Positions 39,751 through 64,000 of a DNA stretch of 64,000 nucleotides are shown here, in pieces. The translations under genes were made by a program, and so were the position numbers. A model generated the notes under the pieces. It made no database searches. It was not told where the DNA came from and saw only the letters and a program-made list of their open reading frames with translations. Within the stretch, counting starts at the first letter, position 1. Each line of letters begins with the position of its first letter. This DNA is from Octopus vulgaris (Eukaryota): positions 39,556,001-39,620,000 of the forward strand of contig OX597828.1 in NCBI GenBank assembly GCA_951406725.2. The letters are read 5' to 3'.

Positions 39751-40211
39751 TAAATATATATATATATATATATAAGAAGTCAGAATAAAAATATGTAATT
39801 AATCAGAAAAACAGGAAACTCAAGAAAGTGATTCATCGTCATTCTTCACAGATAAGAACTGAACACCAAACAGCTGTAAAAGATTACCTATATCCAGTGT
39901 TTTCTCATTTGTGAGGTTCAAATATGAACTCTATGAATATTTACCTACCTATCAATGAAGAACAGCTTCGCAGGACTAGTCAACCCGGGGATATTATAGA
40001 AGATATGGATATTTGCTCAAAACGCTATATAGTTGAGAAGCAAACTTCTTCACCACACAGTACAGTCATGCTAATAGTTGCTTCTCTAAATATTAATAAT
40101 AATATACAAATACTCATATTTTGAGTTCTAGTTTTCCTGTTTGCACCACCAATACCTATATATACAAATACATATAAATTCCTTGATGACTATGTATGCA
40201 TGCCAACTTAC

Positions 40212-40291
40212 CAGGTTCAAACAATGACAACATCAGATTTGACTTTTTCTTGCTGTCTGCCCAAGAATATAACATTCCATACCAGTTTTCC
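40212..40291 (-). CDS. INTS14: INTS14 internal coding exon B (80 nt)
   Basis: Boundaries tcatgtctcAG|g...cctg|GTaagt. Translates ENWYGMLYSWADSKKKSNLMLSLFEP (INTS14: PEWHGMLYSQADSKKKSNLMMSLFEP). Phase 2 in, phase 1 out. Confidence 0.95.
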
Positions 40292-40699
40292 CTGAGACAT
40301 GAAAGAAGAAAAATCAAGAAACAGTAAAAATACAATGGAAAATGGAATAAACAATAAGGAAAACTCTAGTAAACATGCTTGGCTCAATGTTAGTCTTATT
40401 CTGATATACATACATATATATATATATTATCTGATAAACACAATATATGATCTTATGTGTTATTATTAGTTTCATGTACTGAGAGCATGCCAGAAAGTAT
40501 TTTTTAACAGTGCCTGATGATTGTATTAAGTTACCAGGCATGTTACAAAATACTGTCTGGGATGGTCTCAGCACATGGAACTAATAGTAGCACACAACAA
40601 TATATATTGTGTTTATAAATAATATTTACCTCTCACCAGATGAGTGCTTTTTTGGGGTTGATCTTACCATCACAGGACAGTACACTATATATATATATA

Positions 40700-40880
40700 A
40701 ATGTGACCTTGTGTGTACCGTTGGTGATTTTTTTCCCTCTGTCTTCCCTTCTCCTATGTTACTAACGAAGAGTTCCGCTCGAAACGTTAAACCCTCCTTC
40801 TTTCCTGAGTGTCCAATAATACTATATTTGTTCCACGTCCTCACGTTGTTGTGTTTTTTTGTGCTTTCTTGTTTGGATTA

Positions 40881-40885
<5 letters not shown>
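40700..40885 (+). mobile_element. Penelope-like terminal-repeat fragment with degenerate hammerhead (40758-40792)
   Basis: GTTA-CTAACGA-A-GAG TTCCG CTC-GAAA-CG-T-T-AAAC with a G5A core mutation; element flanked by (TA)n. Confidence 0.5.
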
Positions 40886-40918
<33 letters not shown>

Positions 40919-40934
40919 TATATGTTGTTTTATT

Positions 40935-42145
40935 GTTTTACCAGTTTCAGCTCAAAGCTGTCGCGATATTGGGGCACTGCTGGTTTGCTACACTGTTATT
41001 ATTGAGAGGCTCCTCTGATATGTGGAATTTGGTGAATAAGGGAGTTTGATGTCGCTACCCTCATTTGCACCTCCTGCTGCAAGGTAGGTTCATCTGGGAC
41101 TCTCGACAGGTAGAGATCCAGTTTTGATTTGAAAACACGTACGTCCACTTGTGTAGGTCCCCCAGGCTGTGGGCCTCTGAAACCCAGGCTGTTGCAGTAA
41201 CTGGTCCAGAAGCACAACAGCATTGCTGGGATCTTTGGCACTGTGCAGTGGTGTCCCTTTCTTGCATTTGTGTAGCTTTCAAGGCCAAAATATGGCACAA
41301 TCCCTTCCAGGATCTTCCAGATGTATATATTACTGTATATCTCTCCCACCTTCATTCCAGGGAGTAGAGTCTTTGCCGTTTCAGCCTTTCCCAGTAGCTG
41401 AGCTGCTGCAATGAGACGATTTTCTTTGTGAAGCTTCATCGGATTGCTTTAAGGTCCCCTGTTAATTTTACACTGTTGGGTGACCATAACTGGGAGCAGT
41501 AGCCTAGGCGGCTGAGGATGAATGTTCTCCGAAGGACCATCATTGTTTCCTTCTCTCTGGTTCTGAATGTTCTCAGGATCCAGCCAGCCAGCCAGCTGTC
41601 TGCACTTTGTTGCCATTTTGGTAATGTGCACTTAGAAAGAGGTATCATCGCTCATGGTAATACACAGATCCCTCACTGATTTAGGTTCTGGGATTGTAAT
41701 CCCCTGTGGGCCAGTGTACCCTGTAAGTTTTATGTTCAGTTTTGGGTGCTGATAGCAGAGGGTTTGGAATTTTCCAGCATTAAACTGCATATTATTGTCC
41801 TCAGCCCATTCTCAAACTGAGTCCAACTCCTGCTGCAAGTGTTCAACATTGCTAGGGTTTTGTATTTTCTGCAAGACTTTCATACTGCCAGCATAGCTAG
41901 CAAGGGTGACTATCTGGGCTGTTGAGGGCATATCTAAGAGGGCCACTATAAAAAGCAGTGGTCCCAAGACAGTGCCCTGTGGAACACTACTGGCTATTTG
42001 TGTTTTCTGTGAGGTACTCCATTGGCCACCACTGCCTGACTTATGTCTTTCAGAAAATCATGTAATCACTCTCCAAGTTTTCCATCTATGCCGAGATCAT
42101 GCAGTTTGTGGCATATCATACCATGACTCACTGATAAGTGGAATT
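40935..42145 (-). mobile_element. CR1-group LINE, 3' half of RT and 3' end (decayed)
   Basis: SSVPQGTVLGPLLF, WAEDNNMQFNAGKF, LGYCSQLWSP, IYIWKILEGIVP, FKSKLDLYLSRVPDEP...SNSL, then a tail ending gagctgaaact. Confidence 0.88.
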
Positions 42146-42564
42146 TGGTGAATATACATACATATATGTATATGTTGTTGTATTTGGGGAGGGTCATGTT
42201 GCCAGTTTATCCAATGAAATCACACACTATATATATTTGGTGTTCACTTGCTTCAGCTTTATTTTATATTAATTGTATTTCGGCCAGAGTCTGTTTCAAC
42301 ACACGAATTCACATCAAGAATCTTGCAAAATGACTATATATATATATATATATGCACGTAAAAAGCACCCACTACACTCATGGAGTGGTTGGCGTTAGGA
42401 AGGGCATCCAGCTGTAGAAACATTGCCAGATAAGACTGGAGCCTGGTGCAGCCTTCTGGCTTCCCAGATCCCCGGTCAAACCGTCCAACCCATGCTAGCA
42501 TGGAGAACGGACGTTAAACGACGATGATGATGATGATGATGATATACACACACATATATATTCA

Positions 42565-43366
42565 TATTAAGACAAACCCTAAAACCTTCTATAGATATGC
42601 AAAAACAGAGCCACTACTTGAAGAAAATGGCTAACCAATTGCATACCCCCAGAGGATCAGTGAAATACTGAATGTGCAATACAAGATTGCTTTCACCACT
42701 CACCTGGGACACTTGCAAGTTGTTATGCCTAATGAGTTCTTTGGCTCCACAGATCTACACAACAAAATGGCAATTATTGACAGCATCAACATAGAGGAAA
42801 CTGATATGATATCAGCCATTGAAGAGATGAGCTCAAACTCAGCAACAGGCCCTGATGGATTCCTAGCAATCCTCCTAAAGAAATTCAAAGGGGCTCAGCT
42901 AGACCACTTCAGATTCTTTTCCAGAGCTTCCTCACAATAGGGAGACTTGCCAAAAAGTTAAAGGAAGACATTATATGCCGTATCCAGAACGGAGGTAGCA
43001 GAGCAGACGCTAAGAATTATAGACCTATCTCTCTAACTGCCCATGTCAGCAAAGTCATGAAGCGTATTGCCAAGAAGATACTAATTGCATTTCTTGAAGA
43101 TAATGACAGCTTTTTAATATTCTCCCAAAGAGCCTGAGGAACCTACACAAAGTAGATGTAGGCATTTAAAAATCAAGGCTGGACCTCTTTCTGTTGAGAG
43201 TCCCAAATGAACCTACCTCATGGCAAGAGGTGCAAATGAGGGTAGCTACATCAAACTCTGTTCTTTACGAAGTGCCACATATTAGAAGAGGATCTCAGTA
43301 ATAACAGGGTAGCAAAACGGCGGTGCTCCAGCATGGCCACAGCTCTGAGCTGAAACTACAAAAAAG
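42565..43366 (+). mobile_element. CR1-group LINE, internally deleted copy with 3' tail
   Basis: IKTNPKTFYRYAK, SATGPDGF, NYRPISLT, then a jump to LDLFLLRVPNEP and the tail ggcggtgctccagcatggccacagctctgagctgaaact. Confidence 0.85.
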
Positions 43367-44015
43367 TCTATATATGTATATATTTATATAAATATATATG
43401 ATCAAACTGTGCAACCCATGCCAGCATGAAGAGTGGATGTTAATCAATTATATATATATATATATATATAAATACATGACGCAAACATACACGTAGTATA
43501 AACAGTAATGTCATCATTTGGTGTGTTATGTTATGATAATGTAAGTGAAGGAATGAATGAAATGTTTTGCTTTATAAAAATAAATGCAACTTCATTCAAC
43601 ATGAAAAAGCATCCAGCTGTGGAAACAATGCCAAAATTAAATGCACAGGTGAAACACAGGTCACTGACCTGTTTAAGAGAAGAGCAACAACTTATTCCAT
43701 GCTGACCTATCCAACACACACACACACACACATCTTATCTTATATTTTATCTTTTACTTGCACCATGTTCCACATTACGTTCTTTATTTCACCTTCAGCT
43801 CTTAGAGCTGTGATTGCTGTATTTTCAAATGGCTCACAATGTTTTAGTATCAGTCTGGATAAACCATCTGCATGCCCTAGTGTTTTCAACGGTAAATACT
43901 CCATTTTGTAGTTATGATTTAATAGTATAATGCCCCTTATTGCAGTCTATTCGCTGTGTGCATTGGGTTTCCTTTTTTGGAACCATATGTAGTCAGCAGC
44001 AAGCAATGATTTGTT

Positions 44016-44412
44016 TGCAGGAGTGGCTGTGTGGTAAGTAGCTTGCTTACCAACCACATGGTTCCGAGTTCAGTCCCACTGCGTGGCACCTTGCGCAAAT
44101 GTCTTCTACTATAGCCTCGGGCCGACCAAAGCCTTGTGAGTGGATTTGGTAGACGGAAACTGAAAGAAGCCCGTTGTGTATATATGTATATATATGTATG
44201 TGCATGTATGTTTGTGTGTCTGTGTTTGTCCCCCTAGCATTGCTTGACAACCGATACTGGTGTGTTTATGTCCCCAGAATTTTGCAGTTCGGCAAAAGAG
44301 ACCGATAGAATAAGTACTGGGCTTACAAAGAATAAGTCCCGGGGTCGAGTTGCTCGACTAAAGGCGGTGCTCCAGCATGGCCGCAGTCAAATGACTGAAA
44401 CAAGTAAAAGAG
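44016..44412 (+). mobile_element. SINE family A inserted in the Gypsy RNase H region
   Basis: Near-identical to 58463-58869; interrupts the Gypsy reading frame. Confidence 0.9.
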
Positions 44413-45312
44413 TATATTTCATGGATAAATCTATGAAACTTATTGACACCAAACATGATTGCCAACGCCTCTTTTTCTCTCTGACTTTAATTCTTTTCAG
44501 CTGGCAATAACGACCTTGATGCATGGGCTATAGCTATTTTACTGCAATCATTGTATTTGTGCACAAGTATGGCTCCTACATCATACTCACTTGCATCTGT
44601 AGCCAGTATAGTTTCCAAATTTGGATCAACATGTGTCAATGATAGGTCCGAAGTTAAAATACTTTTCAATTCATTGAATGCCTTGTGGCACTTATCTGTC
44701 CAATGCCATTTTGTATTCTTTTTCAACAGATCATTGAGTGGGGCCCTTACATTATGTATGTTTGGAATATAGATTTGGTAATAGTTTACCAAACTCCAAA
44801 ATGCCTGCAGCTTCATTACACTTTTTTGGTGTGGGAATATTCTTTATCGCTGTTACCCTTGACGGATCTGGCTTTCTTCCATTTATGTCAATTACTTGAC
44901 CTAAGTATTAAATTTTATTCAACAAGAACTCAGATTTTACCTCCTTTAACTTGAACCCGTATTTGCTTATTTTCTCTAATACCCTTTAAATGTGTTGAAA
45001 GTTTTGTTCCTGTGATTCACTCTTTATCAAAATATTGCCTAGATAGGTGATAGCGAAATCACAATCACTCAGCATTGCATCTATTACTTGCTGATATGTG
45101 GCAGGAGCCACTTTTACATCGAAGGGAAGCCGCTTAAATTTAAATAAGCCAATGTGTGTGTTAATTGTTAATAAATGTGAGCATTCTTCTTCTACTTGAA
45201 TCTGTAGATATGTCTCTGAGAGGTCTAATTTTGAGAAGAATTTCCCTCCATTCAATTTTGTAAACACTTCCTCTAAATTTGGCAATAGGTAGTTATGTGT
45301 GACTAAACAATC

Positions 45313-45717
45313 ACTTTACACTTTACACTTTTACTTGTTTCAGTCATTTGACTGTGGCCATGCTGGAGCACCGCCTTTAGTCGAGCAAATCGACCCCGGG
45401 ACTTATTCTTTGTAAGCCCAGTACTTATTCTATTGGTCTCTTTTGCCGAACCGCTAAGTGACGGGGGCGTAAACACACCAGCATCGGTTGTCAAGCAATG
45501 CTAGAAGGACAAACACTGACACACAAACATACACACAAATACATATATATATACGACGGGCTTCTTTCAGTTTCCGTCTACCAAATCCACTCACAAGGCA
45601 TTGGTCAGCCTGAGGCTATAGTAGAAGACACTTGCCCAAGATGCCACGCAGTGGGACTGAACCCAGAACCATGTGATTGGTAAGCAAGCTACTTACCACA
45701 CAGCCACTCCTGCACCT
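45313..45717 (-). mobile_element. SINE family A inserted in the Gypsy RT
   Basis: Splits CADF..GYND | CL..HNYLLP; (gtaaagt)n tail. Confidence 0.9.
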
Positions 45718-46939
45718 ATCGTTATACCCTATTAAAAAATCTGCACAAACTCTTAGTTTGTTATTCTTCTTTTTCATGTAAACCATCGGTGCTGCACAGT
45801 CTGAGTGGTCCATCTTTTCAATTATTTCAAGACTTTCCAGTCTTTGAGTTCTTTGTTAACCTGGGCTATTGCTGTGAATGGTACATTCCTTTTTGACTGG
45901 TATTGCACTTTGTTTTACAGTGATCTTAGTTTTCGTTTTTGTACAAGAACCCAGTTTTTCCAAAAAAATATCTGGAAATAATTTTTTAATTTTTTGCTTC
46001 AGTCCTTTAGCCTCATTTGAACCTTTGACTGACTCAACTATATTTCCACACAGAACACCTATGGGCGTATCACATAATTTGAATAGCTCCATTCACTCTG
46101 TGCTGAATAAATCAAGTGAACTTTTTAGCACACATATCTTTGCTTTTTTTTGTTTGACATTGAAATATTACATTACATACAAATTCACCAAAAAATATAA
46201 TCTTTTTCCTGTAATACCATGTGCCACCTTTTTAGATTTTATTAGTTTCAGCTTACTGACATATTTCCCTGTCTTTTCATTTATAATGATATCACTACCA
46301 GTGTCATCTTCATTCTACAGTGTGTCTTTATATGTCCAATCTTTCCACAACAAAAGTACTCTGCTTTTTTAAATGAACAATTTTTTTCTCAGGTGTATAC
46401 CTTCACATGCAAAACATGGGTTTACTTCCTGATTTTTGTTGTTTTTTTAGAAAACACTTTAACTCTATTTTGACTATTTTGCACTTGTTTTACTTGGAAA
46501 GAATCTTTTCATTTGATTTCCTTTGTGTTGACTTAAATCCTTCCACATTGTTCTGACACCTGCTGTAGGGCTACATCCTGGTTTTGTTCCAACTTTACAA
46601 GAATTCTAGTTCTAACTTCTGTGTCCTATAAAAATCAGGCATTTGAACATATCAGGCATTAATTTGTCCAGCTTGAACTTCTCACATTCCCTGTTAACTC
46701 TACCAGCATATGCAATGGAGTCCTTGTCATTTTTTTCCATGTTCAGACACTTCCAATGTGTGTTGAACAATAGGGTGGAGCAAAAAATGCAACTTTTGAC
46801 ACTGGTAACCAAGAATCGATATTTTGTAGCGAATTAGGGTTAAAAGAAAGGTGTATAAAGAACTTTGCGGTTAAATATTTTTTGGGGGCTCCACAATGCA
46901 ATTGGAATTTTTTAAAATCAGTATTTTTGGTTGAATTTT

Positions 46940-47200
46940 GGATTTCATGGATTATAAGTTGTAACAGATATATACATATTTCTACATAGTGGAATGCAAA
47001 ACCATTAATATAGAATCCTTAAGAGGTTGCATACCAAGTTCCAATACAAGAGAATGGGAATCCTAGTAAAATAGCGTGTTCTCGATGGCTTACAACTGCA
47101 AATCGTATGCTATGGTTGTATGTTGCCTCCAAGAATCCTTCTAACTTAATGAAATTAATTGTTGCTTACATAATGAAAGTTTATGTCATTTTAGGAATTT
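46940..47200 (+). mobile_element. DNA transposase remnant (hAT-related, hATm/hATx-like)
   Basis: NPSKIACSRWLTTANRMLWLYVASKNPSNLMKLIVAYIMKVY; I recall SRWLTTANR.LRLY as typical of an invertebrate transposase group. Superfamily uncertain. Confidence 0.6.
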
Positions 47201-47357
47201 CCAAAACAACAAATTTTTAACTGCTCCATTCTTTATTTGTGAGTGAGATGCTAATTCTCATCTATGAAAAACATTAATTGGCTTTATTACTGAAACGAAA
47301 AGGAATGCACTACAACAATTCATATAATTTAGTTACATGGAATTATTTTAGTTAAAT

Positions 47358-49072
47358 CTCTATATATAAAGTTGAGAATGTGTGTCTGTCAGTGTGAATC
47401 CCTAAAACTTGAGAACTACACAACCAATTTCATAAAAATTTTACACATGCCTTACTTAGGGCCCATGTAGTGTCATAGGCCAAAAAAATTTCTGAAAAAA
47501 TTACTGAATGTATCCTTATGATATTTGAAACTTAGATTCAATGCATATGGGTGGGTAAAATGCAGTATGTTTGGTTTGAATTTCAGGTGGCTTGAAAATT
47601 CATAAATTTTCGATGTTGATGAAATTTCAACCATGGGTAATTGACACACATCCAGAAGTATTCTCAAAGTTTCCACATCTCATGAGGATTCTAAGACACC
47701 CTAATGGGGGCCTTAACTCTCAAATTTTAGTCATTTTAGTCAAATTTTAACCATAGATATTAGACACAAATGAAGTAATATTTATAAAATTTCATCTTCT
47801 TACAAGTTAGAAAGACCCCTTCATGGGGACTTAACACCCACAATTTAGTCATTTTATCTAAGCAAAGATGAATACAGTTGTACTCTTGGAAGCTGTAGGG
47901 TCATCCAAGCATAAAAGATGAGCATTATTTGTAATTCAATGGTACAACAGTGTAAGAGTTTGCTTTGAGATATACTTAGATTGTGATTTCTGCAATGTGG
48001 TGCATAAATTGTCAAGTAAATGAGAGGCATCTTTGCCTCCACTGATTCAGTTGCAAAGAGTTGAGTAATGTTATTTGGTTGCAGACCTCCTTTCAGTCTT
48101 TTTATTATCACTGGGTCACACATAGTCCCCAGATGGTAACATTGATTTCAAGGCCTTGCTAGATGAGTGACTGGTTATTCAAAGACATTTATAGATGGTA
48201 AATTTATTCTGTCCAGTTACATATCAGTATAGTGGTCATCTGCAAACTCCAGAGGTGACACTTTAATTTCTCCTTAGCCCTCATGTCACAGTTGTTAATG
48301 TTGATTTCAGTTGGGTCACACCCTTCAAATTGCTATAGATCCTTAATGCATCTTATGGCTGTGCCTGTCACCTATAAGGTGAGGAATCCTACATTGGGAG
48401 TGATAACAACTAGGGTACAGTAGCTGACTGCTTACTGTGATCATTCGTCTTTTGCTTTCCTGTAGCTTTGCTCTCTTTTACAAACCCAGTGAACATATAT
48501 ATATTTCCTATTTCAAAGGAATTCAAACAATAGATATAAGACCCAAGTTAAAAATTCAACTTCTCTGGTTGACATTAAGACACCCACCCCCAATAGGGGC
48601 CTTAACTTGCACATTTTAGAGGTCCATGACCTCCATTTTTCAGGAGCAAAATCCTTTTAACAGGTTCTGTAAGACTGGAATTTTGGAATATGCGCATAAA
48701 AATCAGTAGTATGGGATACATGTGGCACGATTACAATTTTGTTTGGCACAATTTTGTGCGGGTGGCACGTAAAAAGCACCCACTACACTCACGGAGTGGT
48801 TGGCGTTAGGAAGGGCATCCAACTGTAGAAACATTGCCAGATAAGACTGGAGCCTGGTGCAGCCTTCTGGCTTCCCAGATCCCCAGTTGAACCGTCCAAC
48901 CCATGCTAGCATGGTGAACGGACGTTAAACGATGATGATGATGATGATGTGTGTAAAGAGGGAAATAACCCTCATCTGCAATTTTGATGAAATTCGAAAC
49001 ATAGGTATTCCAGTTCATTACAGAAAATATAACTGCGATAGACTGGCAGTTGCACGGGCGCGAAAGCTACGT
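47358..49072 (+). mobile_element. Helitron-like element with ~125-bp internal repeats
   Basis: 5' end TCTCTATATATAAAG..GAATGTGTGTCTGTC resembles that of the 53738 element; degenerate repeats at 47620-47740, 47741-47855 and 48520-48620; 3' end gttgcacgggcgcgaaagctacgt; RTE tail inserted at 48757-48948. Confidence 0.6.
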
Positions 49073-49208
49073 TGTTATCCTCATTCCATAAATGGTGGCT
49101 TTTAACGGGTGGAGAGCTGAACCATCCTGGGGTACAGAGGATTTGCAATCTAGACTAGGGTCTGAAAGTTTACCACGACATAGTGGGTTACACCATGGTT
49201 TCTCTGCT

Positions 49209-49410
49209 TTGTGGCAGAAGTAGGAAGAAAGAGCGAGAGAAAGTTGTGGTGAAAGAGTACAGCGGGGTTTACCCCCATCCCCTGCCGGAGCCTCGTGGAG
49301 CTTAGATGTTTTTGCTCAATAAACACTCACAATGCCCAGTCTGGGAATTGAAACTGCGTTCTTATGACCGCGAGTCCGCTGCCCTAACCACTGGGCCATT
49401 GCGCCTCCAC
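49209..49410 (-). mobile_element. SINE head B without a tail
   Basis: Head B only; possible 6-bp TSD tctgct (49203-49208, 49411-49416). Confidence 0.8.
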
Positions 49411-49574
49411 TCTGCTGTTGTTGTTCTCTCAGCTATTGTTGTTGCTACTTTTGCAACTTGAGCAAACCTGCCAACAGATTTTCCATATTTTATGATTTTT
49501 CATAAAATTCCTACACCAACTTTGTGTGTTTATTAACCCCTATTAGAGTTTCTGGTAACCCCATGTAAATTGGT

Positions 49575-49712
49575 TTATCCTTGTCGAGTTTATCAATTTC
49601 CCGTGAGTTATTTAAATCCTTTTCAAGTTTACTAATTCATCGTGAATTATTTAAATCCTTGTTGAGTTTATTAATTCCTCGTGAGTTGTTCAGATCCTCA
49701 TCAAGTTTCCTT
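49575..49712. repeat. 39-bp tandem repeat, ~3.5 copies
   Basis: Unit ~tttaaatccttgtcgagtttattaattcctcgtgagtta. Confidence 0.85.
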
Positions 49713-50499
49713 GTTGCCACCATTATATCCTTAAAATGCTGGATTGTTATAACATCATTTCAGTATACAGTATACTTAGTGAAACCATCTGACTATCTAT
49801 CACATACTCTCATAATTCTCACACTTTTCTTTACTTATAGTGACTAGGAAATTCTATTTATCACATAGGAAGGGTGTAACGATTATTATTAATTCTCTAC
49901 AACAGTAGTACAAAGAAAAAAAAAAAAAAAGAATTGGATGAAATTGGTCCGGAAGGAGGGAAGCGGGTGAGTGTTTGAGTTTCATAAAAAGCGCTCCCAC
50001 CACATTATCTGCAAGGGTGTGGAAATCCAACTTCCATGGGAGTACTATTCTGCTAAGGCACTCTTTTGTGAAAATTACTCAGCAACAACAAAATACTCAC
50101 CCAGTATGTATATACATATATATATATATATAAGCACATACACACACAAAACATGAAAAAACGTGATAGGAACTTAACTATTGCTTCACTCAATGTGACA
50201 TTTTATGGTTATATATGTGAATAACCCAACAATATAGATTATTAACAATATGTAAAGAAACGCACTCCCATGAAACATTGCAAATAAAGACATGAATGGT
50301 CTGCCCAAATTCATTGAGCCACTGTGAGAACTGCACATTTCCTTTCTTCCCTGACCAGGTATTTTATAATAGCTTTCTCAGAATATATGAACAGAATTTA
50401 CATAAGTGGTGCCCTGAAAACTGCAACACTGTGGGAGAATTCCAGATTTTAAAAAAATTATAAATTTACAGAACATCTCTCCCTCTTTCTCTCCCTCCC

Positions 50500-50534
<35 letters not shown>

Positions 50535-50547
50535 GACACACACACAA

Positions 50548-51030
<483 letters not shown>

Positions 51031-51112
51031 GGTCCCGGGTTGATTTGGGGTTAACCACAGTAAATAAGGTACTCAATACATAGCAGAGTAAAATTAATTT
51101 ATTATATAGAAG

Positions 51113-51162
51113 GAGCTTCTACAGGACTAGAACTGTTTCATTCAAGAGAAATCTTCAGGAAG

Positions 51163-51165
<3 letters not shown>
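51113..51165 (-). ncRNA. Type I hammerhead ribozyme, near-canonical, in a short element (~51029-51166) flanked by (TA)n
   Basis: Minus strand reads GAGCUUC-CUGAAGA-U UUC UCUU GAA U-GAAA-CAG UUCUAGUC CUG-U-A-GAAGCUC: perfect 7-bp stem I, full core, 3-bp stem II plus a U.U closing pair, 4-bp stem III, GUA cleavage triplet. Confidence 0.8.
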
Positions 51166-51211
<46 letters not shown>

Positions 51212-51604
51212 TATCTATCTATCTATCAATATATCTATCTGTGTGTGTGTGTATGTATATATATACATATGTATATGTATAATAATAATAATATGAGGGA
51301 ATATTATTCTAAACTTACAGGGAAAAATTCAATTCAGAAATACTAAGTCATATTTCACAAAATATAATACATATATATATATAAATTTTAAAAAAAACCC
51401 ACCTTTTATCAATGAAAAATTACATTACACCATTTAGAAAAATTACATCTTATAGAAAGATTAAATATAAGATAAAAACATATACCAATGATTAAGTAAT
51501 GTGCAAAATAATAAATAAACCGTATATATTTGTATATGTATATATATGTACATGTATATATATCTATATATATAATTATAAATATAAATATATATATAAA
51601 TATA

Positions 51605-52150
51605 AAAAGCACTATCCGACTCGTGGCTGATGCCAGCACCGCCTCGACTGGCTTCCGTGCCGGTGGCACATAAAATACACCAATCCGACCATGGCCGTTG
51701 CCAGCCTCGCCTGGCACCTGTGCAGGTGGCACGTAAAAAGCACCCACTACACTCACGGAGTGGTTGGCGTTAGGAAGGGCATCAAGCTGTAGAAACATTG
51801 CCAGACCCCAGTTGAACCGTCCAACCCATGCTAGCATGGAGAACGGACGTTAAACGATGATGATGATGATAAATATATATATATATAAATATATCATCAT
51901 CATCATCGTTTAACGTCTGCTTTCCATGCTAGCATGGGTTGGACGGTTCAACTGGGGTCTGGCAAGCCCGAAGGCTGCACCAGGCCAGTCAGATCTGGCA
52001 GTGTTTCTACAGCTGGATGCCCTTCCTAACGCCAACCACTCCGAGAGTGTAGTGGGTGATTTTATGTGCCACCGACACAGGTGCCAGACGAGGCTGGCAG
52101 ACGGTCACGCTCGGATGGTGTTTTTTATGTGCCACCGACACAGGTGCCAA
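51605..52150. repeat. Tail-to-tail pair of RTE 3' UTR copies forming a long inverted repeat
   Basis: 51605-51870 (+) and 51893-52150 (-) belong to the same family and are separated by a ~22-nt AT spacer. Confidence 0.9.
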
Positions 52151-52153
52151 ATG

Positions 52154-52200
<47 letters not shown>

Positions 52201-52459
52201 TATATATATATAATGTATATATATATAATGTTTATATATATATATATAATGTATATATAATGTATATATATATCATCATCATCATCATCATCATCATATA
52301 TATATATATATATATATATATTACGGAGATGTACCTGCATAGCAAGTGATTTGATCTGAGATCATGTGCTGAAACGAAAACAATTGCAGCGTGGAAGGTG
52401 TTTGTAAGCCATTTAAGAGACACAAAAGCCATTCGATTCACTTCAACATTTAAGTTTAA

Positions 52460-52510
52460 TTTGTCAAAATATTTTCGTCGCTTTAAGACCGCGACCTGTT
52501 CACTGACAAA
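52460..52510 (-). ncRNA. Minimal type I hammerhead-like RNA with G3/C8 core variant, in a short TA-flanked element (~52321-52548)
   Basis: Minus strand reads UUUGUCA-GUGAACA-G-GUCGC GGUCUUAAA GCGAC-GAAA-AUAU-U-U-UGACAAA: 7-bp stem I, 5-bp stem II, 1-bp stem III with a palindromic tetraloop. Confidence 0.7.
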
Positions 52511-53340
52511 AATCCGTGCTGCATCTGAGAAAGTAACAGTTAGTTCGTTATATATATGTACGTATGTATGCATGTACGCATGTATGCACGCATGTATGTA
52601 TGCATGCATGTATGTATGTATACACACAGGCGTACGTACGTACATACATATTTCTTTGGACAAACAAGGAGAGACAAAGGGATTAAGTTGATTACACCGA
52701 TCCCAGTGTGTAACTGGTACTTAATTTATCGACCCCCGAAAGGATGAAAGGCAAAGTCAACCTCGGCGGAATTTGAACTCAGAACATAATGGCAGACGAA
52801 ATACCGCTAAGCACTTCGGCCGGCGTGCTAAAGTTTCTGCCAGCTTGCTGCTTTCTGCCATACACACACACACATCTTCTGCCATACACACTCACACACA
52901 CACAGTTCATGGCATGTTCAGACTACTGTCATGTATCCCATATGACATGATCAGACAAAGCTCCTAGATACGATATTTATATCCATTCCAGTATGATAGC
53001 AAAAGGGTTTAAGCTTTAAGACCAGATCAATATATTTAATCCTTCAGCATTTCAACTGTCATATCTTCCCACCAAAATAAAATACCTGTTATGTGTGCAA
53101 ACTGGCCTCTAAAACCTACCCAGGTATGTTTGACATTATCTTTCATACTTTTTCGTGGGGGGTAGACCAAGTCGTAGAGTCACTGTAATCAACTTGCCCC
53201 CCCCCCCTCCCCAACATAGCTGGCCTTATGCCTAAATCCCAAACCAATGCTAGTTACATATCTAACCCTTCCTTTAGTATTCAGATTATTTTCTCAAACA
53301 TAAGGTTTATTTATTCACATTATTTTGAATTTATCATCTA

Positions 53341-53738
53341 CTAGCAGTATCGCCCGGCGTTGCTCGGGTTTGTAAGGGAAATAACTATATAAGCATTTTT
53401 AGAGAGGTAAAGTATAACAGCCATCTCAATATGGCTAACCACAAGGGGGGGGGTGTTACTGTAGCTTTTTACGTTCTGAGATTTAATAATAAATTTTTAG
53501 AGAGTTACTTCCCTTATATATGCCAAAAATGCATTAAAAATGAAAAAAAATGATGGTAAATTTTTTTTTAAATCGTACACTCATCGTAGACGTGCGCTAA
53601 TACCCAGAAGGGCTTGATATGAATCACCGACTATAAGATACCCGGTTTTGGTTAAACTGCACCACAAAATGTGGGAGTAGTTAGGAATCTAAATCGTAGG
53701 AGACAGACAGCACACAACCTCACTTTTATATATAAAGA
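53341..53738 (-). mobile_element. Complete non-autonomous Helitron (398 bp)
   Basis: Minus strand A|TC...cccgagcaacgccggg hairpin...CTAG|T with no TSD; removing it restores the host MITE. Isolated Helitron 3' ends also at 8751-8790 and 62415-62450. Confidence 0.9.
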
Positions 53739-54230
53739 TTATCTTCTAGCTTTGATATTTTGATGACGTGATTGTTTATTTTAAGAATGACATAATAGGA
53801 TAAGTGTGAGAGGCTGGATCTGGCCTGTTTAAGCATAAAACAGAATATTTGGGCCTGACATGCCCAGTTGAAATACTAAAGGATTAATGAATTAAGTAAA
53901 ATAAAAGATACCCCTTTTCTTTTTTTTTTTCAGTCCAGATGAGCATCCTACATATAGGCTCTAATGCATTTGCAGTCTGCTCCAATACTGGAAAGGTGCC
54001 TTGCCACTAGGCTAGAAATTGCAGCCAAATATCCTTCACTATCTTTAAAAGGAGAGACACATTAAATAAAGTAGTCCTATGTACACTAAGTCTGAATAAA
54101 ATCTAAAAACAAACAGGATGGTCACAGCTGGAATGCCTTTCAAATTGCACTCAATACATGTCAATAAACACTGCACGACAGTCAGTATCATATGGAACTG
54201 AAGAGAAAGAAACATGGCATAACAACTTGT

Positions 54231-54290
54231 CATGTGACTTTAGTCAGCTGGTCATGTGATTTTAGTCAGCTGGTCATGTGATTTTAGTCA
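54231..54290. repeat. 22-bp tandem repeat, ~2.7 copies
   Basis: catgtga(c/t)tttagtcagctggt repeated. Confidence 0.85.
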
Positions 54291-56044
54291 CCCATCTCAG
54301 ATTTTATTGTTGATGTTGAGCACCAGGCGTGTCCTGATTGACCAGATTTATGATGAAAGGCATTCTAGCCATGACCCTCCTACCTTTTCTGATATAGTTT
54401 ATCTCAGGTCATGTTATTTAATATGGTCTTCATTTTTTTTCTTTAACCCTTTAACATTTAAATTAGCCATAACAGGTCCAAATATTCTACCTGTTTTATA
54501 TTCATTCAAAAGAAGCCAGATCTGGCCTCTTACACTTACCCATCAATGTCATTGTAAAAGTAAATAATCATATCAACAAAATCTAGAAAGTTACCCTCCA
54601 AAGCACACGTCCAGGTAAGGTTGTTCATGGAAGGCTAGAAGTTGTCCATGTATACCAGCCTCCGTTCTCCATGTCACTGATGTTGTTCAAGGGAACAGCA
54701 AAGGCTGATGCAGCTTGACACCAGTGAGACTGCAACTCATTTCTACGGTGGGGTGAACTAGAACAATCTGAAACAAAGTGTCTTGCTCAAGAACAAAACA
54801 CACAGCCCAGTCCAGAAATCGAACCCACTGCCTCATGATTGTGAGCCCGATGTTCTAACCGTCCAGTCATGCACACAAGCTATGAGGTAATGCACAATCA
54901 ATTCAAAACAAAATACACTCTTGCAGCCAGCAAGATGTGATTTGAGAGAGATTTGTTTACTATTTCTTGCAAGTTGAGTCACCATATAAATCAAGTGTGA
55001 GCAACTGTTTTCCTAGAAGCAGACCTTGTGATATATTGTAAGTCGTAAATCAAGTCATCTCTAAAGTAATAAACATCATATGTTGTACAGAGTAATTTAG
55101 CACACTATGACTTACATTAGATAATCATTAAAATTTATTAGTATGACCAACAAATTATATTTAGAAAGTTTTGGTAAAACTTGTTGTTCATCATCATCAT
55201 CATCATCGCTGATGTCCTCATCAGATCATTTTTATGTTCAGTTTTTTTCATGCAGAGATGAATTTGACAAGACTTGTTGGGGCAGTATTCTAAGGCAGGA
55301 TACCCTTCTGTAACCAACCATTTACTTGTTTTCCACTGGTCTTTAACATATTGAAATTAAGCAATGGGACATGCAGCTTATTGGATGAGAAAAACAAATG
55401 TCACTATTTTGCTCAAACAGTAGTTATGCGAAAACACATGGAAAGAAACACACATACATATATTCACATACAAACAGACAAGCTTCTATACTGCTTCCAT
55501 CAGCCAAATTTTGCTCACAAAGCTTTGGTCAGGACACAGTTATAGTAGAAGAATATTGACCTGTGGCCACTGCTACTGTTGCATACCTGGCACCCATGCC
55601 GGTGGCATGTAAAAAGTACCCTTCAAACTTTAGGCATCATGGAAGCAGTGACAAGTGAGATTGTAGTTGTGGCCGATGCTGGTGTTTCGTAACAGGCACC
55701 TGTGCTGGTGGTACGTAAAAAGCACCCACTCTTGGAGTGGTTGACATTAGGAAGGGCATCCAGCTGTAGAAACTATGTCAAATCAGCATGGAACCTGGCA
55801 CAGCTACCCAGCTTTCCAGTTTTCAGTCAAACTGTCCAACCCATGCCAGCATGGAAAATGGACATTAAATGATGATGATGTTGATGGTACCATTTCATGG
55901 GATGGAATCTGAAACCATGTAGCTCTTTCACCATTTCAACTCTATCCTTCCCTTTTTTTCTCAACCCTGTCACGTAATGAGACTAAACCTGAAATCACAT
56001 TGAAAGGCAAATTCTTTGACCACACAGCCACACCTGCATCTAAC

Positions 56045-56351
56045 TGGCACTCCATCTGTTACGACAAAAAGGATTCCAGTTGGCCCAATCAACAGAACAG
56101 CCTCCTCATGAAATCAACATGCAAGTGGCTGAGCACTCCACAGACATGCGTACCCTTAACATAGTTCTTGGGGGATTCAGCATGACAGAGAATGAGACAA
56201 GGCTGGCCCTGTGAATTACAGGTACATCTCATTTTTGCCAGCTAAGTGGACTGGAGCAACACGAAAAATAAAGAGTCTTGCTCAAGGATACAACATGCTA
56301 CTGGGAACACACAACCTTATGACTGTGAGCCAAATACTCTAACCTCTAAGC
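56045..56351 (-). mobile_element. CORE-like SINE head E + tail 1 (5' tip displaced to 57906-57927)
   Basis: Core ccttgagcaagact...ttgctccagtccacttagctggcaaaaatgag joined to a tail homologous to 23520-23705. Head E with other tails at 16325-16545 and 54583-54875. Confidence 0.8.
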
Positions 56352-57598
56352 CAATGGTTCCCAACCTTTTCACTACCAAGGACCCCTTTTATTTAAATGA
56401 GTTTCCACACGGGCCCCAGGATATTGAAAGGTCTGTCAGCTTAACATGCTGACATGATTAAACTGGCAACAAACTCATTTTACTAGATTCATCTCAAAAG
56501 AAAGACATCTGTAACTGAATATGAAAAAAAAAAAAAAAAAAAGGAAAATGAATAAAAATAAAATAAGAAATACAGAACAAAAATTAAATTACTTTATCTT
56601 TATCTCATAAATGAGATGGTTGATGCTGTTTTGTTGATACTATGTTCGGAATGTCAGGTTCAATGGCAGATCAGGTTCCACATTCACCCTATTTCTGTAT
56701 ATGTTAAGTTACCTGTGTGTAACTTCATTGTTTTTTTCCTTTTAATACGCTTATCTTTATGTGTATGTGTATATCATCATCATCATTTAGCGTCCGCTTT
56801 CCATGCTGGCATGGGTTGGACGGTTCAACAGGGGTCTGGGAAGCCAGAAGGCTGCACCAGGCCCAGTCTGATCTGGCAATGTTTCTACGGCTGGATGCCC
56901 TTCCTGACGCCAACCCCTCCGTGAGTGTAGAGGGTGCTTTTTACGTGCCACCAGCACAGGGGCCAGGCGAGGCTGGCAATGGCCACGATCGGATGGTGCT
57001 TTTTACGTGCCACCGGCACGGAGGCCAGTCGGGGCGGCGCTGGCAACGGCCACGCTTGGATGGCTCGCTGCCACCGGCACTGGTATCACAGCTGCAATTT
57101 CCATTGATGTTGATCGACTTCGATTTTGGTTCTGATTTTGATTTCCACTTGCCTCAAGAGGTCTTCACAAGTGGAGTTTTGTGTCCCAAGAAGGAAAGGT
57201 ATGCATAAGTTGACTGGCTACATCCCAGGTAGAGGCTGGTCTCACTTGTCCTGCCGGGTCTTCTCACGCACAGCATACTTCCATAGGTCTCGGTCTCTAG
57301 TCATTTCCTTGGTGAGACCTAAAGTTCGAAGGTCATGCTTCACCACCTCGTCCCAGGTTTTCCTGGGTCTACCTCTTCCACAGGTTCCCTCAACCGCTAG
57401 GGTGTGGCACTTTTTCACACAACTATCTTCAGCCATTCTCATCACAAGACCATACCAGCGCAAACGTCTCTCTTGCACACCACAACTGATGCTTCTTAGG
57501 TCCAACTTTTCTCTCAAGGTATTTACACTCTGTCGAGTATGAACACTGACATTACACATCCATCGGAGCATACTGGCTTCATTTCTTGCGAGCTTATG

Positions 57599-57637
<39 letters not shown>

Positions 57638-57789
57638 TTATTTCGTTTTTGGAGTCAAGACTATTGAAAGGGTTGGAAGACGCAACGAAAATTTTAGGAA
57701 AATAAAAATAAGGAATAGGTGGAAATTTTACCAGTGAGTGTGTAACATTATAAGGCACAAAAAGAAAATGACTCTCTCCAGACACAACA

Positions 57790-57825
<36 letters not shown>

Positions 57826-57905
57826 CTTTGAATTTTGTTCATGGACCTCCAGTACTACCTTTGTGGACCACCAGGGGTCTGTGGTCCACAGGTTGGGAAC
57901 TACTG
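56352..57905. mobile_element. hAT MITE split by an RTE insertion
   Basis: TIRs caatggttcccaacct / aggttgggaactactg; TSD ctctaagc / cactaagc (7/8). Confidence 0.8.
56773..57592 (-). mobile_element. Young RTE LINE 3' end with complete 3' UTR and (GAT)n tail
   Basis: ORF 57242-57571 (RRLRWYG...GRGRPRKTWDEVVKHDL...LWKYAVREKTRQDK*) is contiguous with the 3' UTR seen in many short copies. Confidence 0.93.
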
Positions 57906-57987
57906 CACTAAGCTATGCACCTTCACACCTGCATCTACAAGCTGTAATAATAGTAACAATAATAGTTTTGACAAAATAAGAACTCAC

Positions 57988-58192
57988 CCTACTTCAGTAA
58001 GGGCAATCATGCCTTCCACTTTCAAACTTCCGTGCAGTAAGACACTAAAAGATGGTGCTTTGCCTCCTTCTGCAGCAGCTGCAGCCGCTGCTGCTGCTGC
58101 TGCAGCTTTCCCTGCCTCGTCTGTGGTTGAGGAAACAACATCTTCATCGCCGTCCTTGGATTCTTTGTTGTTGTTAGTTTCACCATTTGATT
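57988..58192 (-). CDS. INTS14: Integrator complex subunit 14 (VWA9), internal coding exon A (205 nt)
   Basis: Boundaries ttatttcAG|aa...gtagg|GTgagt. Translates (E)SNGETNNNKESKDGDEDVVSSTTDEAGK-A12-EGGKAPSFSVLLHGSLKVEGMIALTEV(G), matching my recollection of the INTS14 motif GKIPNFCVLLHGSLKVEGMVAIVQLG. Phase fits exon B. Confidence 0.93.
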
Positions 58193-58462
58193 CTGAAATA
58201 AGTATAAAATTTTACAGCAAAAGGGAAAAAGGTCCAAACAATTTTATGATTTGAACATCAATTTATGTCAATAATGCTTGCCTTGGTATGAGTATTAAAA
58301 TCCTTTTGAAAATGAATTCTTACCTGCCACTTGTACCAACAGGGGTTCAGCGCAAACATCAAAGAACTGCCATATACACTGTCAGTGGCACAGTTTCATA
58401 ATTTGAGAAAATGTTTCATTCTGCATCTTTGACATGGTTTTGAGGATATTCAAATAATACGA

Positions 58463-62372: not shown

Positions 62373-62591
62373 AATATTATGAGGATGATGATGATATATA
62401 TATATATATATATACTAGCAGGTAAGCTCGGTTTCACCCGGTCTGTTTGGATGATGTGGCTGTGATCGTTTTCGGTTAGGCATAATCTATAACAGTATTT
62501 CTCAACCTTATCATTTTCGGTCCCCTATTTCGATTGGAGCCTCAGCTGTATGAAAATTTCCTGACCCACCCCTTGTCAGAAAACAGCTTCA

Positions 62592-64000
62592 GGAGTTTGA
62601 ATGGGATAAAGAGAGTCTGCCGAATGTTGACCCAACAGAGGGACCAGCTATCCGAGTTGATAGTTCCGTGGTAGCTAAGGCAATTAGAAGCATGAAGACA
62701 GGGAAAGCCCCAGGCCCATCAGGAATTACTGCAGAGATGCTCAAAATATCTGGCAGTGTCGGCTATAGCCTAGTCACCCGTATAGTCAACCAGGTGATAC
62801 ACGAAGGAGTCATACCCAATGACTGGTGTAGCAGCATACTAGTCAACTGCTACAAAGGTAAAGGTGATGCCCTAGATACAAATAATTACAGAGGTATCAA
62901 GCTGTTGGATCAGGTAATGAAGGTTACGGAGAGGGTCATAGTCCAACTAATTAGAGAGAGAGTTAGGTTAGATGAGATGCAGTTTGGGTTCGTGCCAGGG
63001 AAAAGCACCACTGATGCTATATTCCTGTTAAGGCAGCTGCAGGAGAAATACCTAGCCAAAGATAAGCCCCTGTACCTGGCTTTCGTTGACATGGAGAAAG
63101 CCTTTGATAGGGTCCCCCGATCCCTTATCTGGTGGTCACTGAGGAAACTAGGGATCGATGAATGGCTGGTGAGGGCTGTGCAAGCCATGTACAGAGATGC
63201 CGTAAGTAAGGTTAGGATTGGCAACATGTACACAGAAGAATTCAAAGTAGAGGTTGGGGTCCACCAGGGTTCAGTACTCAGCCCCCTCCTATTTATCATA
63301 GTCCTCCAGGCAATAACAGAGGAATTCAAGACAGGTTGCCCCTGGGAGCTCCTCTATGCTGACGACCTTGCTCTAATTGCTGAGTCACTATCAGAACTGG
63401 AGGAGAAGTTCCAGGTGTGGAAGGAGGGTTTAGAATCGAGGGGCCTTAGAGTCAACCTAGCTAAAACCAAAGTACTAATAAGTAGACAGGTAGACAATCC
63501 ACAAATGTCTTCAGGAAGATGGCCCTGCTCGATCTGTAGAAAAGGTGTAGGTAGAAACTCTATAAGATGTACCCAGTGTAAGCTATGGACACATAAGAGG
63601 TGCAGCAATGTCAAAGGTAGGCTAACTGGGAAGATAGTTTTTGTATGTGGCAGATGCTCGGGAGCATTGACCTCCGAAAATCTGTAGAAAACAACTTCCG
63701 TCACTTTCCAGGGGGAAAAACTAGAAGTAGTTGATTGCTTCCATTATCTAGGTGACCAAGTCAGTAGTGGGGGTGGGTGCGCTGAAAGTGTAACTGCTAG
63801 AATAAGAATAGCCTGAGCAAAATTTAGGGAGCTCTTACCTCTGCTGGTGACTAAAGGCCTTTTGCTCAGAGTAAAAGGCAGACTGTATGATGCATGTGTA
63901 CGAACTGCCATGCTACATGGCAGTGAAACATGGGCCGTGACTGCTGAGGACATGCGTAAGCTCATGAGGAATGAAGCCAGTATGCTCCGATGGATGTGTA
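62592..64000 (+). mobile_element. RTE-clade LINE ORF2 (reverse transcriptase), 5'-truncated, runs off the window, with in-frame stops
   Basis: GKAPGPSG, NYRGIKLL, QFGFVPGKST, FVDMEKAFDRVP, GVHQGSVLSPLLF, LYADD, NLAKTK, then a C4HC3 motif; stops at ~63685 and ~63814. Confidence 0.95.

Follow-up and report, generated by a model that had tools for sequence, protein, structure and literature searches.

The locus at 52460-52510 raises two questions: whether a hammerhead whose core carries G3:C8 in place of C3:G8 is a genuine member of its class, and what such a motif does on the sense strand of the octopus INTS14 gene. The C3:G8 pair was reportedly revealed by the 2006 crystal structure, and engineered swaps have been used to test it. 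The initial annotation of the window (the whole stretch of 64 kb that was analysed) described the motif as a minimal hammerhead of Penelope type, called the double change C3G/G8C compensatory, and proposed that fixation of G3/C8 and covariation of the stems be looked for among its copies. Judged by its sequence and its relatives, the motif is a genuine hammerhead of the minimal type I kind, and its 3:8 swap is compensatory. The reading that we prefer, with a probability of roughly 0.6, goes further and holds that the motif is the minimal type I hammerhead of a young Penelope-like element (PLE) family, that C3:G8 was changed to G3:C8 in it, and that it has likely kept a slow cleavage activity, for which it would probably need to dimerise or to be aided by the protein of the element.

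Anatomy and predicted fold of the motif

52460..52510, minus strand: minimal type I hammerhead motif (sequence, predicted fold and pair counts in 14 family representatives)
52498..52503, minus strand: swapped tertiary pair, G3 (52503) with C8 (52498) (copy counts and homologous motifs)

All the parts that the initial annotation had listed (the stems, the GAAA, the core and the palindromic AUAU loop) are present on the minus strand, and at the positions that it gave. Stem I is formed by UUUGUCA (52510-52504) and UGACAAA (52466-52460), stem II by GUCGC (52495-52491) and GCGAC (52481-52477) around a loop of 9 nt, and GAAA occupies 52476-52473. The stem III side consists of A15.2 (52472), a UA loop and U16.2 (52469), with U16.1 at 52468 and U17 at 52467; the stem itself is 1 bp long plus the 15.1:16.1 pair, and reads as the palindrome AAUAUU when 15.1 and 16.1 are counted. 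The predicted cut, placed between 52467 and 52466 in the initial annotation, falls at the same site in the re-read sequence.

The three stems form a three-way junction in the type I order, and the core letters U4, G5, A6, A9, G12, A13, A14, A15.1, U16.1 and H17 are all there. Positions 3 and 8 form a Watson-Crick pair (G-C), G3 and C8 standing in the place of the C3 and G8 of the literal consensus CUGANGA, and A9 lies at 52497. As had been foreseen, descriptors based on CUGANGA would miss a core of this kind. The motif has, moreover, two features of the minimal Penelope hammerheads, namely an extra nucleotide (G, 52496) between A9 and G10.1 and a palindromic minimal stem III.

The minimum free energy fold of 52455-52515 contains stems I and II (-14.5 kcal/mol, z -2.6, with 3 of 200 shuffles as good). 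Within about 450 nt of intron context the predicted pair probability is 0.98 for stem II and 0.60-0.89 for stem I, and two longer stretches around the motif were not more stable than their own shuffles (z -0.13 and +0.84). An Rfam search of 50000-55000 gave no hammerhead match at E<=10, and at the gathering score there were 0 matches in 5 loci, canonical C3:G8 relatives included. Because those canonical relatives fail the gathering score too, the Rfam miss is uninformative for the motif in the window.

A young Penelope-like element

52321..52650, minus strand: 5'-truncated copy of a young Penelope-like element, with the pseudo-LTR end, a TACA-type microsatellite, the hammerhead and the ORF start or 'tail' (44 matches at 94-100%)
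52321..52412, minus strand: first 30 codons of the element ORF (the PLE 'tail'), with a stop at codon 17 in the window copy

The pattern TTGTCANTGANNAGGTCGC has 7,244 exact matches in the genome and its reversed control has 0 (a count of motifs, in which both arms of inverted insertions are included), and the motif is therefore not a chance occurrence. The 228 bases around it are a young repeat, for which 40 of 2,909 candidates were scored and gave 44 listed matches at 94-100%, and the window copy is about 97% identical to dispersed copies. Its 3' end at 52321 adjoins a TA repeat, and a short inverted piece lies at about 52621-52650. All copies of the family end sharply at a common 3' position but have lost sequence at the 5' side, and many are joined to a partial copy in inverted orientation that lacks the last ~60 bases. 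The 3' ends of 79 copies are of two kinds, long in 43 and short in 34, which differ by about 60 nt; 2 copies belong to neither.

Longer copies extend upstream into an ORF with reverse transcriptase (RT) and GIY-YIG on the same strand as the motif. One of them (L047) has an open frame of 839 codons in which YVDD, the linker CX3CX2C and, at the C-terminus, a YIG nuclease motif can be read directly, and it carries the same hammerhead in sense orientation about 1 kb downstream of the ORF. Pfam gave no significant match for this frame and left pieces of the element ORF unrecognised; its homologue P0097 does match the Pfam GIY-YIG model (E 6.6e-07). The peptide at the ORF start (copy L003) aligns with the N-terminus of the open frame of a sister family with a score of 52, which was reached in 0 of 5,000 shuffles.

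The L047 frame combines the traits by which EN+ PLEs are recognised, that is, a single ORF with RT and C-terminal GIY-YIG, the CX2-5CxxC linker and a CCHH motif, and the 5' truncation, the inverted 5' copy and the optional 3' tail are all found in the family. By its motifs the element is an EN+ PLE of the Neptune/Nematis type, the named clades having been compared by description. The hammerhead sits in the pseudo-LTR, sense to the ORF, which is the location of the minimal Penelope hammerheads, and the assignment to that type in the initial annotation holds.

Several other repeats were seen near the motif or its copies. Two further RT frames near family copies (L032:3-1280 and L037:1622-3973) look like additional Penelope-like families. 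In the window, a frame of 377 codons at 62554-63684 on the plus strand matches a reverse transcriptase (RVT_1, E 2.4e-32) and is probably a LINE fragment. A near-perfect fold-back of 136 bp at 51814-51949 consists of two inverted repeat ends around an ATG/TA microsatellite, and gives sub-threshold matches to miRNA models.

The copy in the INTS14 intron

57988..58211, minus strand: INTS14 exon upstream of the host intron, given as the extent of the open frame (Pfam PF19435, E 1.1e-10; donor GTGAGT)
40200..40291, minus strand: downstream INTS14 exon next to the host intron, its 3' edge given approximately (Pfam PF19435, E 9.1e-15; acceptor CAG)

The minus-strand frames 57987-58211 and 40159-40365 match consecutive parts of the Pfam IntS14_b-barrel profile (positions 90-120 and 116-147). 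Between them lies a host intron at about 40292-57987, some 17.7 kb long, with a GT donor and an AG acceptor, and the motif is located within it in sense orientation. The placement on the INTS14 sense strand was thus correct, considering that the flanking frames match the beta-barrel profile and have proper splice signals. The same intron contains fragments of an RT and RNase H of the LTR-retrotransposon type (44490-45315, minus strand; Pfam RVT_1 and RT_RNaseH_2).

A position on the sense strand of an intron, together with a fold that is predicted in that very context, could point to a domesticated ribozyme that regulates INTS14. We regard this as very improbable, for the copy differs from dispersed copies by only about 3%, its ORF start is interrupted by a stop as in other copies that have decayed, and it offers a stem III of only 1 bp with no partner in the window. 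A search of the 64 kb for a second copy of the motif as dimer partner found none, and cleavage of the INTS14 pre-mRNA is unlikely because the window has this one motif only. The location is incidental, the copy being one young insertion among thousands, and the INTS14 context itself is probably of no importance. In the reading that we prefer, the intronic copy would be a lone, passive insertion by which the host transcript is hardly affected, if at all.

Fixation in the young family and persistence in an older one

Copies were picked with a 23-mer that lies downstream of the core, and 65 of the 66 scored have G-C at 3:8. Moreover, the first 100 of the 7,244 pattern matches contain G3 in 97 and C8 in 98 cases, and C3 and G8 together in none. 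The proposed check on fixation across copies thus came out positive. The check on covariation gave a divided outcome: the stems covary across sister families and relatives (see below), whereas the young family displays fixation only, because it is too young for more. Within it a CpG-type decay of about 4-5% is seen in stem II, and the core (52503-52494) has no variant at 3% or more among the rows listed for four runs from four coded organisms. Since G3:C8 is simply fixed inside the family, the question of compensation has to be put to its relatives.

An older family was found with a pattern that requires G3 and a shorter stem-loop II (147 matches, 4 for the control). Position 8, which was left free in that search, is C in 29 of 30 aligned copies; the neutral position 7 is C in 23 of the 30 and A in the young family. 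Among the first 100 listed of the 147 matches, 32 lack C8 and mostly come from C3:G8 families by point mutation. When the old and the young G3 family are compared, the motif differs by 5 substitutions, all of them confined to position 7 and loop II, the 3' flank is identical at 106 of 130 positions (82%), and the 17 constrained positions outside the search pattern are unchanged (P ~0.02-0.03, as estimated by hand).

It could be argued that the motif is a decaying relic, in which drift fixed both changes in a master copy and their complementarity is a matter of luck. The young family, with its fixation, its CpG-type decay in stem II and its missing covariation, fits that argument, as does the apparent single origin of the swap in the octopus genome, one event in the protein tree given below; the elements evidently transpose with altered cores as well. 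Nevertheless, two families have kept G3:C8 and every stem pair in common although position 7, loops II and III and 18% of the 3' flank changed between them, and the 3:8 pair occurs in four different forms among the relatives, on account of which we consider a relic improbable.

Position 3:8 in sister families and metagenome relatives

A sister family (57% amino-acid identity) has the hammerhead at the same place, with C3:G8 in the core and double changes in stems I, II and III. Of 30 loci, 29 have the motif 3' of the ORF, and many of these carry it a second time, in a 5' pseudo-LTR at a distance of 4.6 kb; long open frames are present in many copies. The pattern for cores other than G3 gave 1,608 matches (control 37); C3 occurs in 70 of the first 100, and 63 of these 70 have G8 (hand count). 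An older family (L255-L263, L219-L225) carries a U3·G8 wobble, with U3 in 7 of 9 pattern matches, and relatives on metagenome contigs carry C3:G8 or U3:A8. The metagenome set comprises 26 loci, 13 of them with a usable ORF end, and the motif was parsed in 5 of the 13 and by script in none of the other 8; the motifs of L160 and L169, plausible by eye only, were left out of the alignment, and a C3 family with a bulged stem I (L210, L220, L232) was left out of alignment A2.

In 14 representatives, which were chosen by hand for a parsable motif and are mutually related, 94.4% of the cells pair and 11 of the 13 pairs change on both sides. None of 500 shuffles reaches so much, a control that overstates the significance because the rows were selected for a parsable motif and are related. 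At 3:8 the representatives have CG in 7, GC in 4, UA in 2 and UG in 1 case, and an unpaired combination in 0. The view of the initial annotation that the double change is compensatory is supported by this distribution, considering that the sister-family homologues have C3:G8 or U3·G8, the metagenome relatives C3:G8 or U3:A8, and that 3:8 is paired in each of the 14. Because related elements keep the pair in other forms, the G3:C8 swap is likely a tolerated natural variant.

None of the 14 representatives departs from U4, G5, A6, the GAAA or U16.1, and none has G at position 17, several of the invariant core letters having been fixed by the search patterns themselves. Stem III is still palindromic in most relatives, with differing letters. 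The extra G is present in 13 of the 14, and U17 is likewise carried by canonical C3:G8 relatives; by this comparison both are features of the clade and not peculiar to the window copy. In a protein tree of the nuclease end a single branch (100/99) unites the G3:C8 elements, the octopus families with C3:G8 (100/99) stand next to it, and the relatives with a pyrimidine at position 3 lie outside the octopus branches, a placement that depends on midpoint rooting. From this tree we infer a single origin of the swap in the octopus lineage.

The constraint on the core may be loose elsewhere. In a very young sister PLE family (L089-L118, e.g. L093:678-725, minus strand) C replaces the conserved A at position 9; its copies are about 99% identical, have open frames of up to ~1,312 codons and are built as pLTR-ORF-pLTR. 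Older copies of the same lineage have A9, and one metagenome relative (L159) combines U3:A8 with C9. In addition, an unpaired G3·G8 occurs in at least 7 copies of the young sister family (e.g. G000 C5:123139430, C8:1151925 and C12:53654186). C9 and G3·G8 in this youngest family suggest that the core is loosely constrained there.

Insertion ends, transcript start and the predicted cut

52526, minus strand: putative transcription start at the first A of AGATGCAG, on the 5' side of stem I at a distance of 16 nt (58 of 79 copies have their 5' end at or near it)

Were cleaved RNA the template, the cut would be expected as the starting point of insertions. In a consecutive series of 79 copies (the first 80 listed less one), 58 start at the 5' border of the intact motif, which is 45-72 nt upstream of the anchor; 8 start inside the motif, 2 at 5 nt or less from the predicted cut, and 11 further upstream. 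This genomic test for cleavage before reverse transcription thus gave no clear excess of 5' ends at the predicted cut. As the copies mostly begin upstream of an intact motif, the templates would have been mostly uncut RNA, and the insertion 5' ends suggest that uncut RNA is what the element copies.

Genome-wide, junctions with a non-T base before the predicted 3' product number 51 at the exact cut, 69 one base upstream and 79 one base downstream. About 20 of 30 examined cases were true truncations at the cut versus 11-13 of 30 one base upstream (13 by script, 11-12 by eye), a comparison with one flank, for which the cut and upstream sets were classified, 30 each. Cut-site truncations, some of them palindromic junctions with the cut at their centre, account for less than 1% of the copies and do not form a clear peak. 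A few inverted insertions have arms that meet exactly at the predicted cut (L278/L279 and G000:C32:630063-630102); these are possibly rare copies of cleaved RNA, in numbers not clearly above those at the neighbouring base.

Reverse transcription can copy the cap as an extra G. Of the copies that end at 52526, 19 of 28 carry a G in front. AGATGCAG preceded by a base other than C has 1,067 matches in the genome, and the base is G in 60 of the first 100 (hand count); most of the 31 T cases among those 100 seem to represent an allele of a subfamily. In runs X16, X17 and X1, contigs have loose ends at 52526. Position 52526 is likely a capped transcription start whose cap G was copied. The G might also have come from a spliced upstream exon, since the sequence just upstream of 52526 resembles a branch point, a pyrimidine tract and a 3' splice site; the 28 copies share no upstream sense exon, and we prefer the cap as its source. 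An internal promoter has been described for Penelope in the consulted portion of PMC2377424.

A possible long-range stem was noticed in the same region. The positions 52385-52390, where short copies end, are predicted to pair with 52518-52523 (minus strand) at the putative 5' end of the transcript, which would enclose the hammerhead, and the older G3 family has the same complementarity between the 5' end and the short end.

The distribution of 5' ends lends weight to a rather different explanation, in which the hammerhead fold, including its 3:8 pair, is kept as a structure (a signal for protein binding or reverse transcription, placed at the 5' end of the RNA of the element), while cleavage hardly occurs or does not matter. 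In its favour, some three quarters of the copies (58 of 79) start a short way upstream of the motif, which they contain intact, and 5' ends are not clearly in excess at the cut; three lineages still spread in spite of cores expected to be slower (G3:C8, C9 and U3·G8); and uncut RNA was the main insertion substrate in Anolis according to the available portion of PMC11167929. Against it, the catalytic letters are invariant, with position 17 never G, in the 14 representatives (several letters being fixed by the search pattern); moreover, cleaved RNA may be a poor template, so that missing insertions at the cut site do not prove missing cleavage. Taking both sides together, we think it somewhat unlikely that the motif serves as a structural signal only.

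Prospects for cleavage

Under the preferred reading of a slow ribozyme, transcription would start 16 nt upstream of the motif and run through it into the ORF. Reverse transcription would begin at two sites in the first codons and mostly copy uncut RNA back to the cap, which would give thousands of short copies with an intact motif. In a tandem transcript two motifs could pair their palindromic stem III halves and form an active core, and slow cleavage would then take place by two tandem motifs or with the protein of the element.

The predicted dimer helix consists entirely of A-U pairs, with only -0.2 kcal/mol for the AAUAUU duplex, and the minimum free energy cofold of two copies is an alternative duplex and not the stem III dimer. 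In 88 loci of 3 kb from the young family, picked as mostly short copies, two direct exact cores occur in 0, inverted pairs only in 17, one core in 33 and none in 38. An extra G at 9/10.1 reportedly harmed a viroid hammerhead in the work of de la Pena and Flores in 2001. Minimal Penelope hammerheads are weak even as dimers, as described in the available parts of PMC4209133 and PMC6765202. The predicted cleavage of the G3:C8 motif is probably slow.

Implications

The fixation of G3:C8 in thousands of copies, and its retention across two families, provide comparative support for the 3:8 pair. In the literature searched, the natural 3:8 variants reported before are U3:A8 and one U3·G8 row, and G3:C8 is known as an engineered form only. 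The octopus locus contributes a very large G3:C8 family, together with a series in the same genome that makes the swap testable. In addition, searches with CUGANGA, and probably those with Rfam, undercount animal hammerheads. The family also bears on the purpose of the Penelope hammerheads, considering that canonical and altered-core sisters are present in one genome, one of them with many intact ORFs.

A wider interpretation is possible, and we advance it tentatively. The forms C3:G8, G3:C8, U3·G8 and C9 in one octopus genome would amount to an experiment of nature in which the Penelope hammerhead was mutagenised step by step, and in which the 3:8 pair is kept and copying takes place almost only from uncut, capped RNA. 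The ribozyme would then act as a switch, slow by design and gated by protein, or as a structural signal, and not as the enzyme that frees the transposition template, and G3:C8 would constitute a large class that is missed by current descriptors.

Comparison with known systems

The comparisons below refer to the portions of the cited papers that were available. No natural G3:C8 and no octopus hammerhead was found in the literature searched, a search that was incomplete for surveys of small Penelope hammerheads (Lunse et al. 2017), and the consulted parts of bioRxiv 10.64898/2026.07.22.740005 and PMC6155905 contain nothing that bears on G3:C8. The closest collection is that of the pseudo-LTR minimal hammerheads by Cervera and de la Pena (2014, PMC4209133). 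The cores listed there have C-G, U-A and one U-G at 3:8, whereas the octopus motif has G3:C8, and none of the 4 words starting with GUGA in supplement file 2 is a core. The extra nucleotide is H in their consensus and G in octopus. Natural covariation at 3:8, as seen in octopus, was also described by Perreault et al. (2011, PMC3088659), there as U3-A8 only and not as G3-C8.

With respect to the element as a whole, the EN+ PLEs of the Neptune and Nematis type (Craig et al. 2021, PMC8557442) and the octopus element are alike in the RT with C-terminal GIY-YIG and the CX2-5CxxC linker. They also share the 5' truncation, the inverted 5' copies, the optional 3' tail, the TA-repeat flanks and the hammerhead in the pseudo-LTR. 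The tail is longer in octopus, about 60 nt versus the 30-40 given in that paper.

The most instructive parallel is the Poseidon element PAc of Anolis (Frangieh et al. 2024, PMC11167929), in which, as in octopus, the hammerhead is located at the junction of pseudo-LTR and ORF. Both families have two genomic 3' ends inside the first codons, and in neither do genomic ends mark the cut site; the two classes of 3' end in octopus match the two internal starts of reverse transcription that were described for the Anolis element. The elements differ in that the ORF of PAc starts inside stem II and the octopus ORF 48 nt after the motif, and in that the octopus element, unlike PAc, has the CX3CX2C linker of the Neptune/Nematis type. 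The Anolis hammerhead cut only in the presence of protein, its catalytic mutants were still inserted in vitro without a reduction of insertion, and uncut RNA was the main substrate. G3:C8 as an engineered variant appears also in PMC3884650, and the engineered C3G/G8C change partly restores cleavage, also in a Penelope hammerhead that requires protein (PMC11167929, PMC8495972). PAc naturally has C3:G8, and the double change that was tested in it is the natural state of the octopus family.
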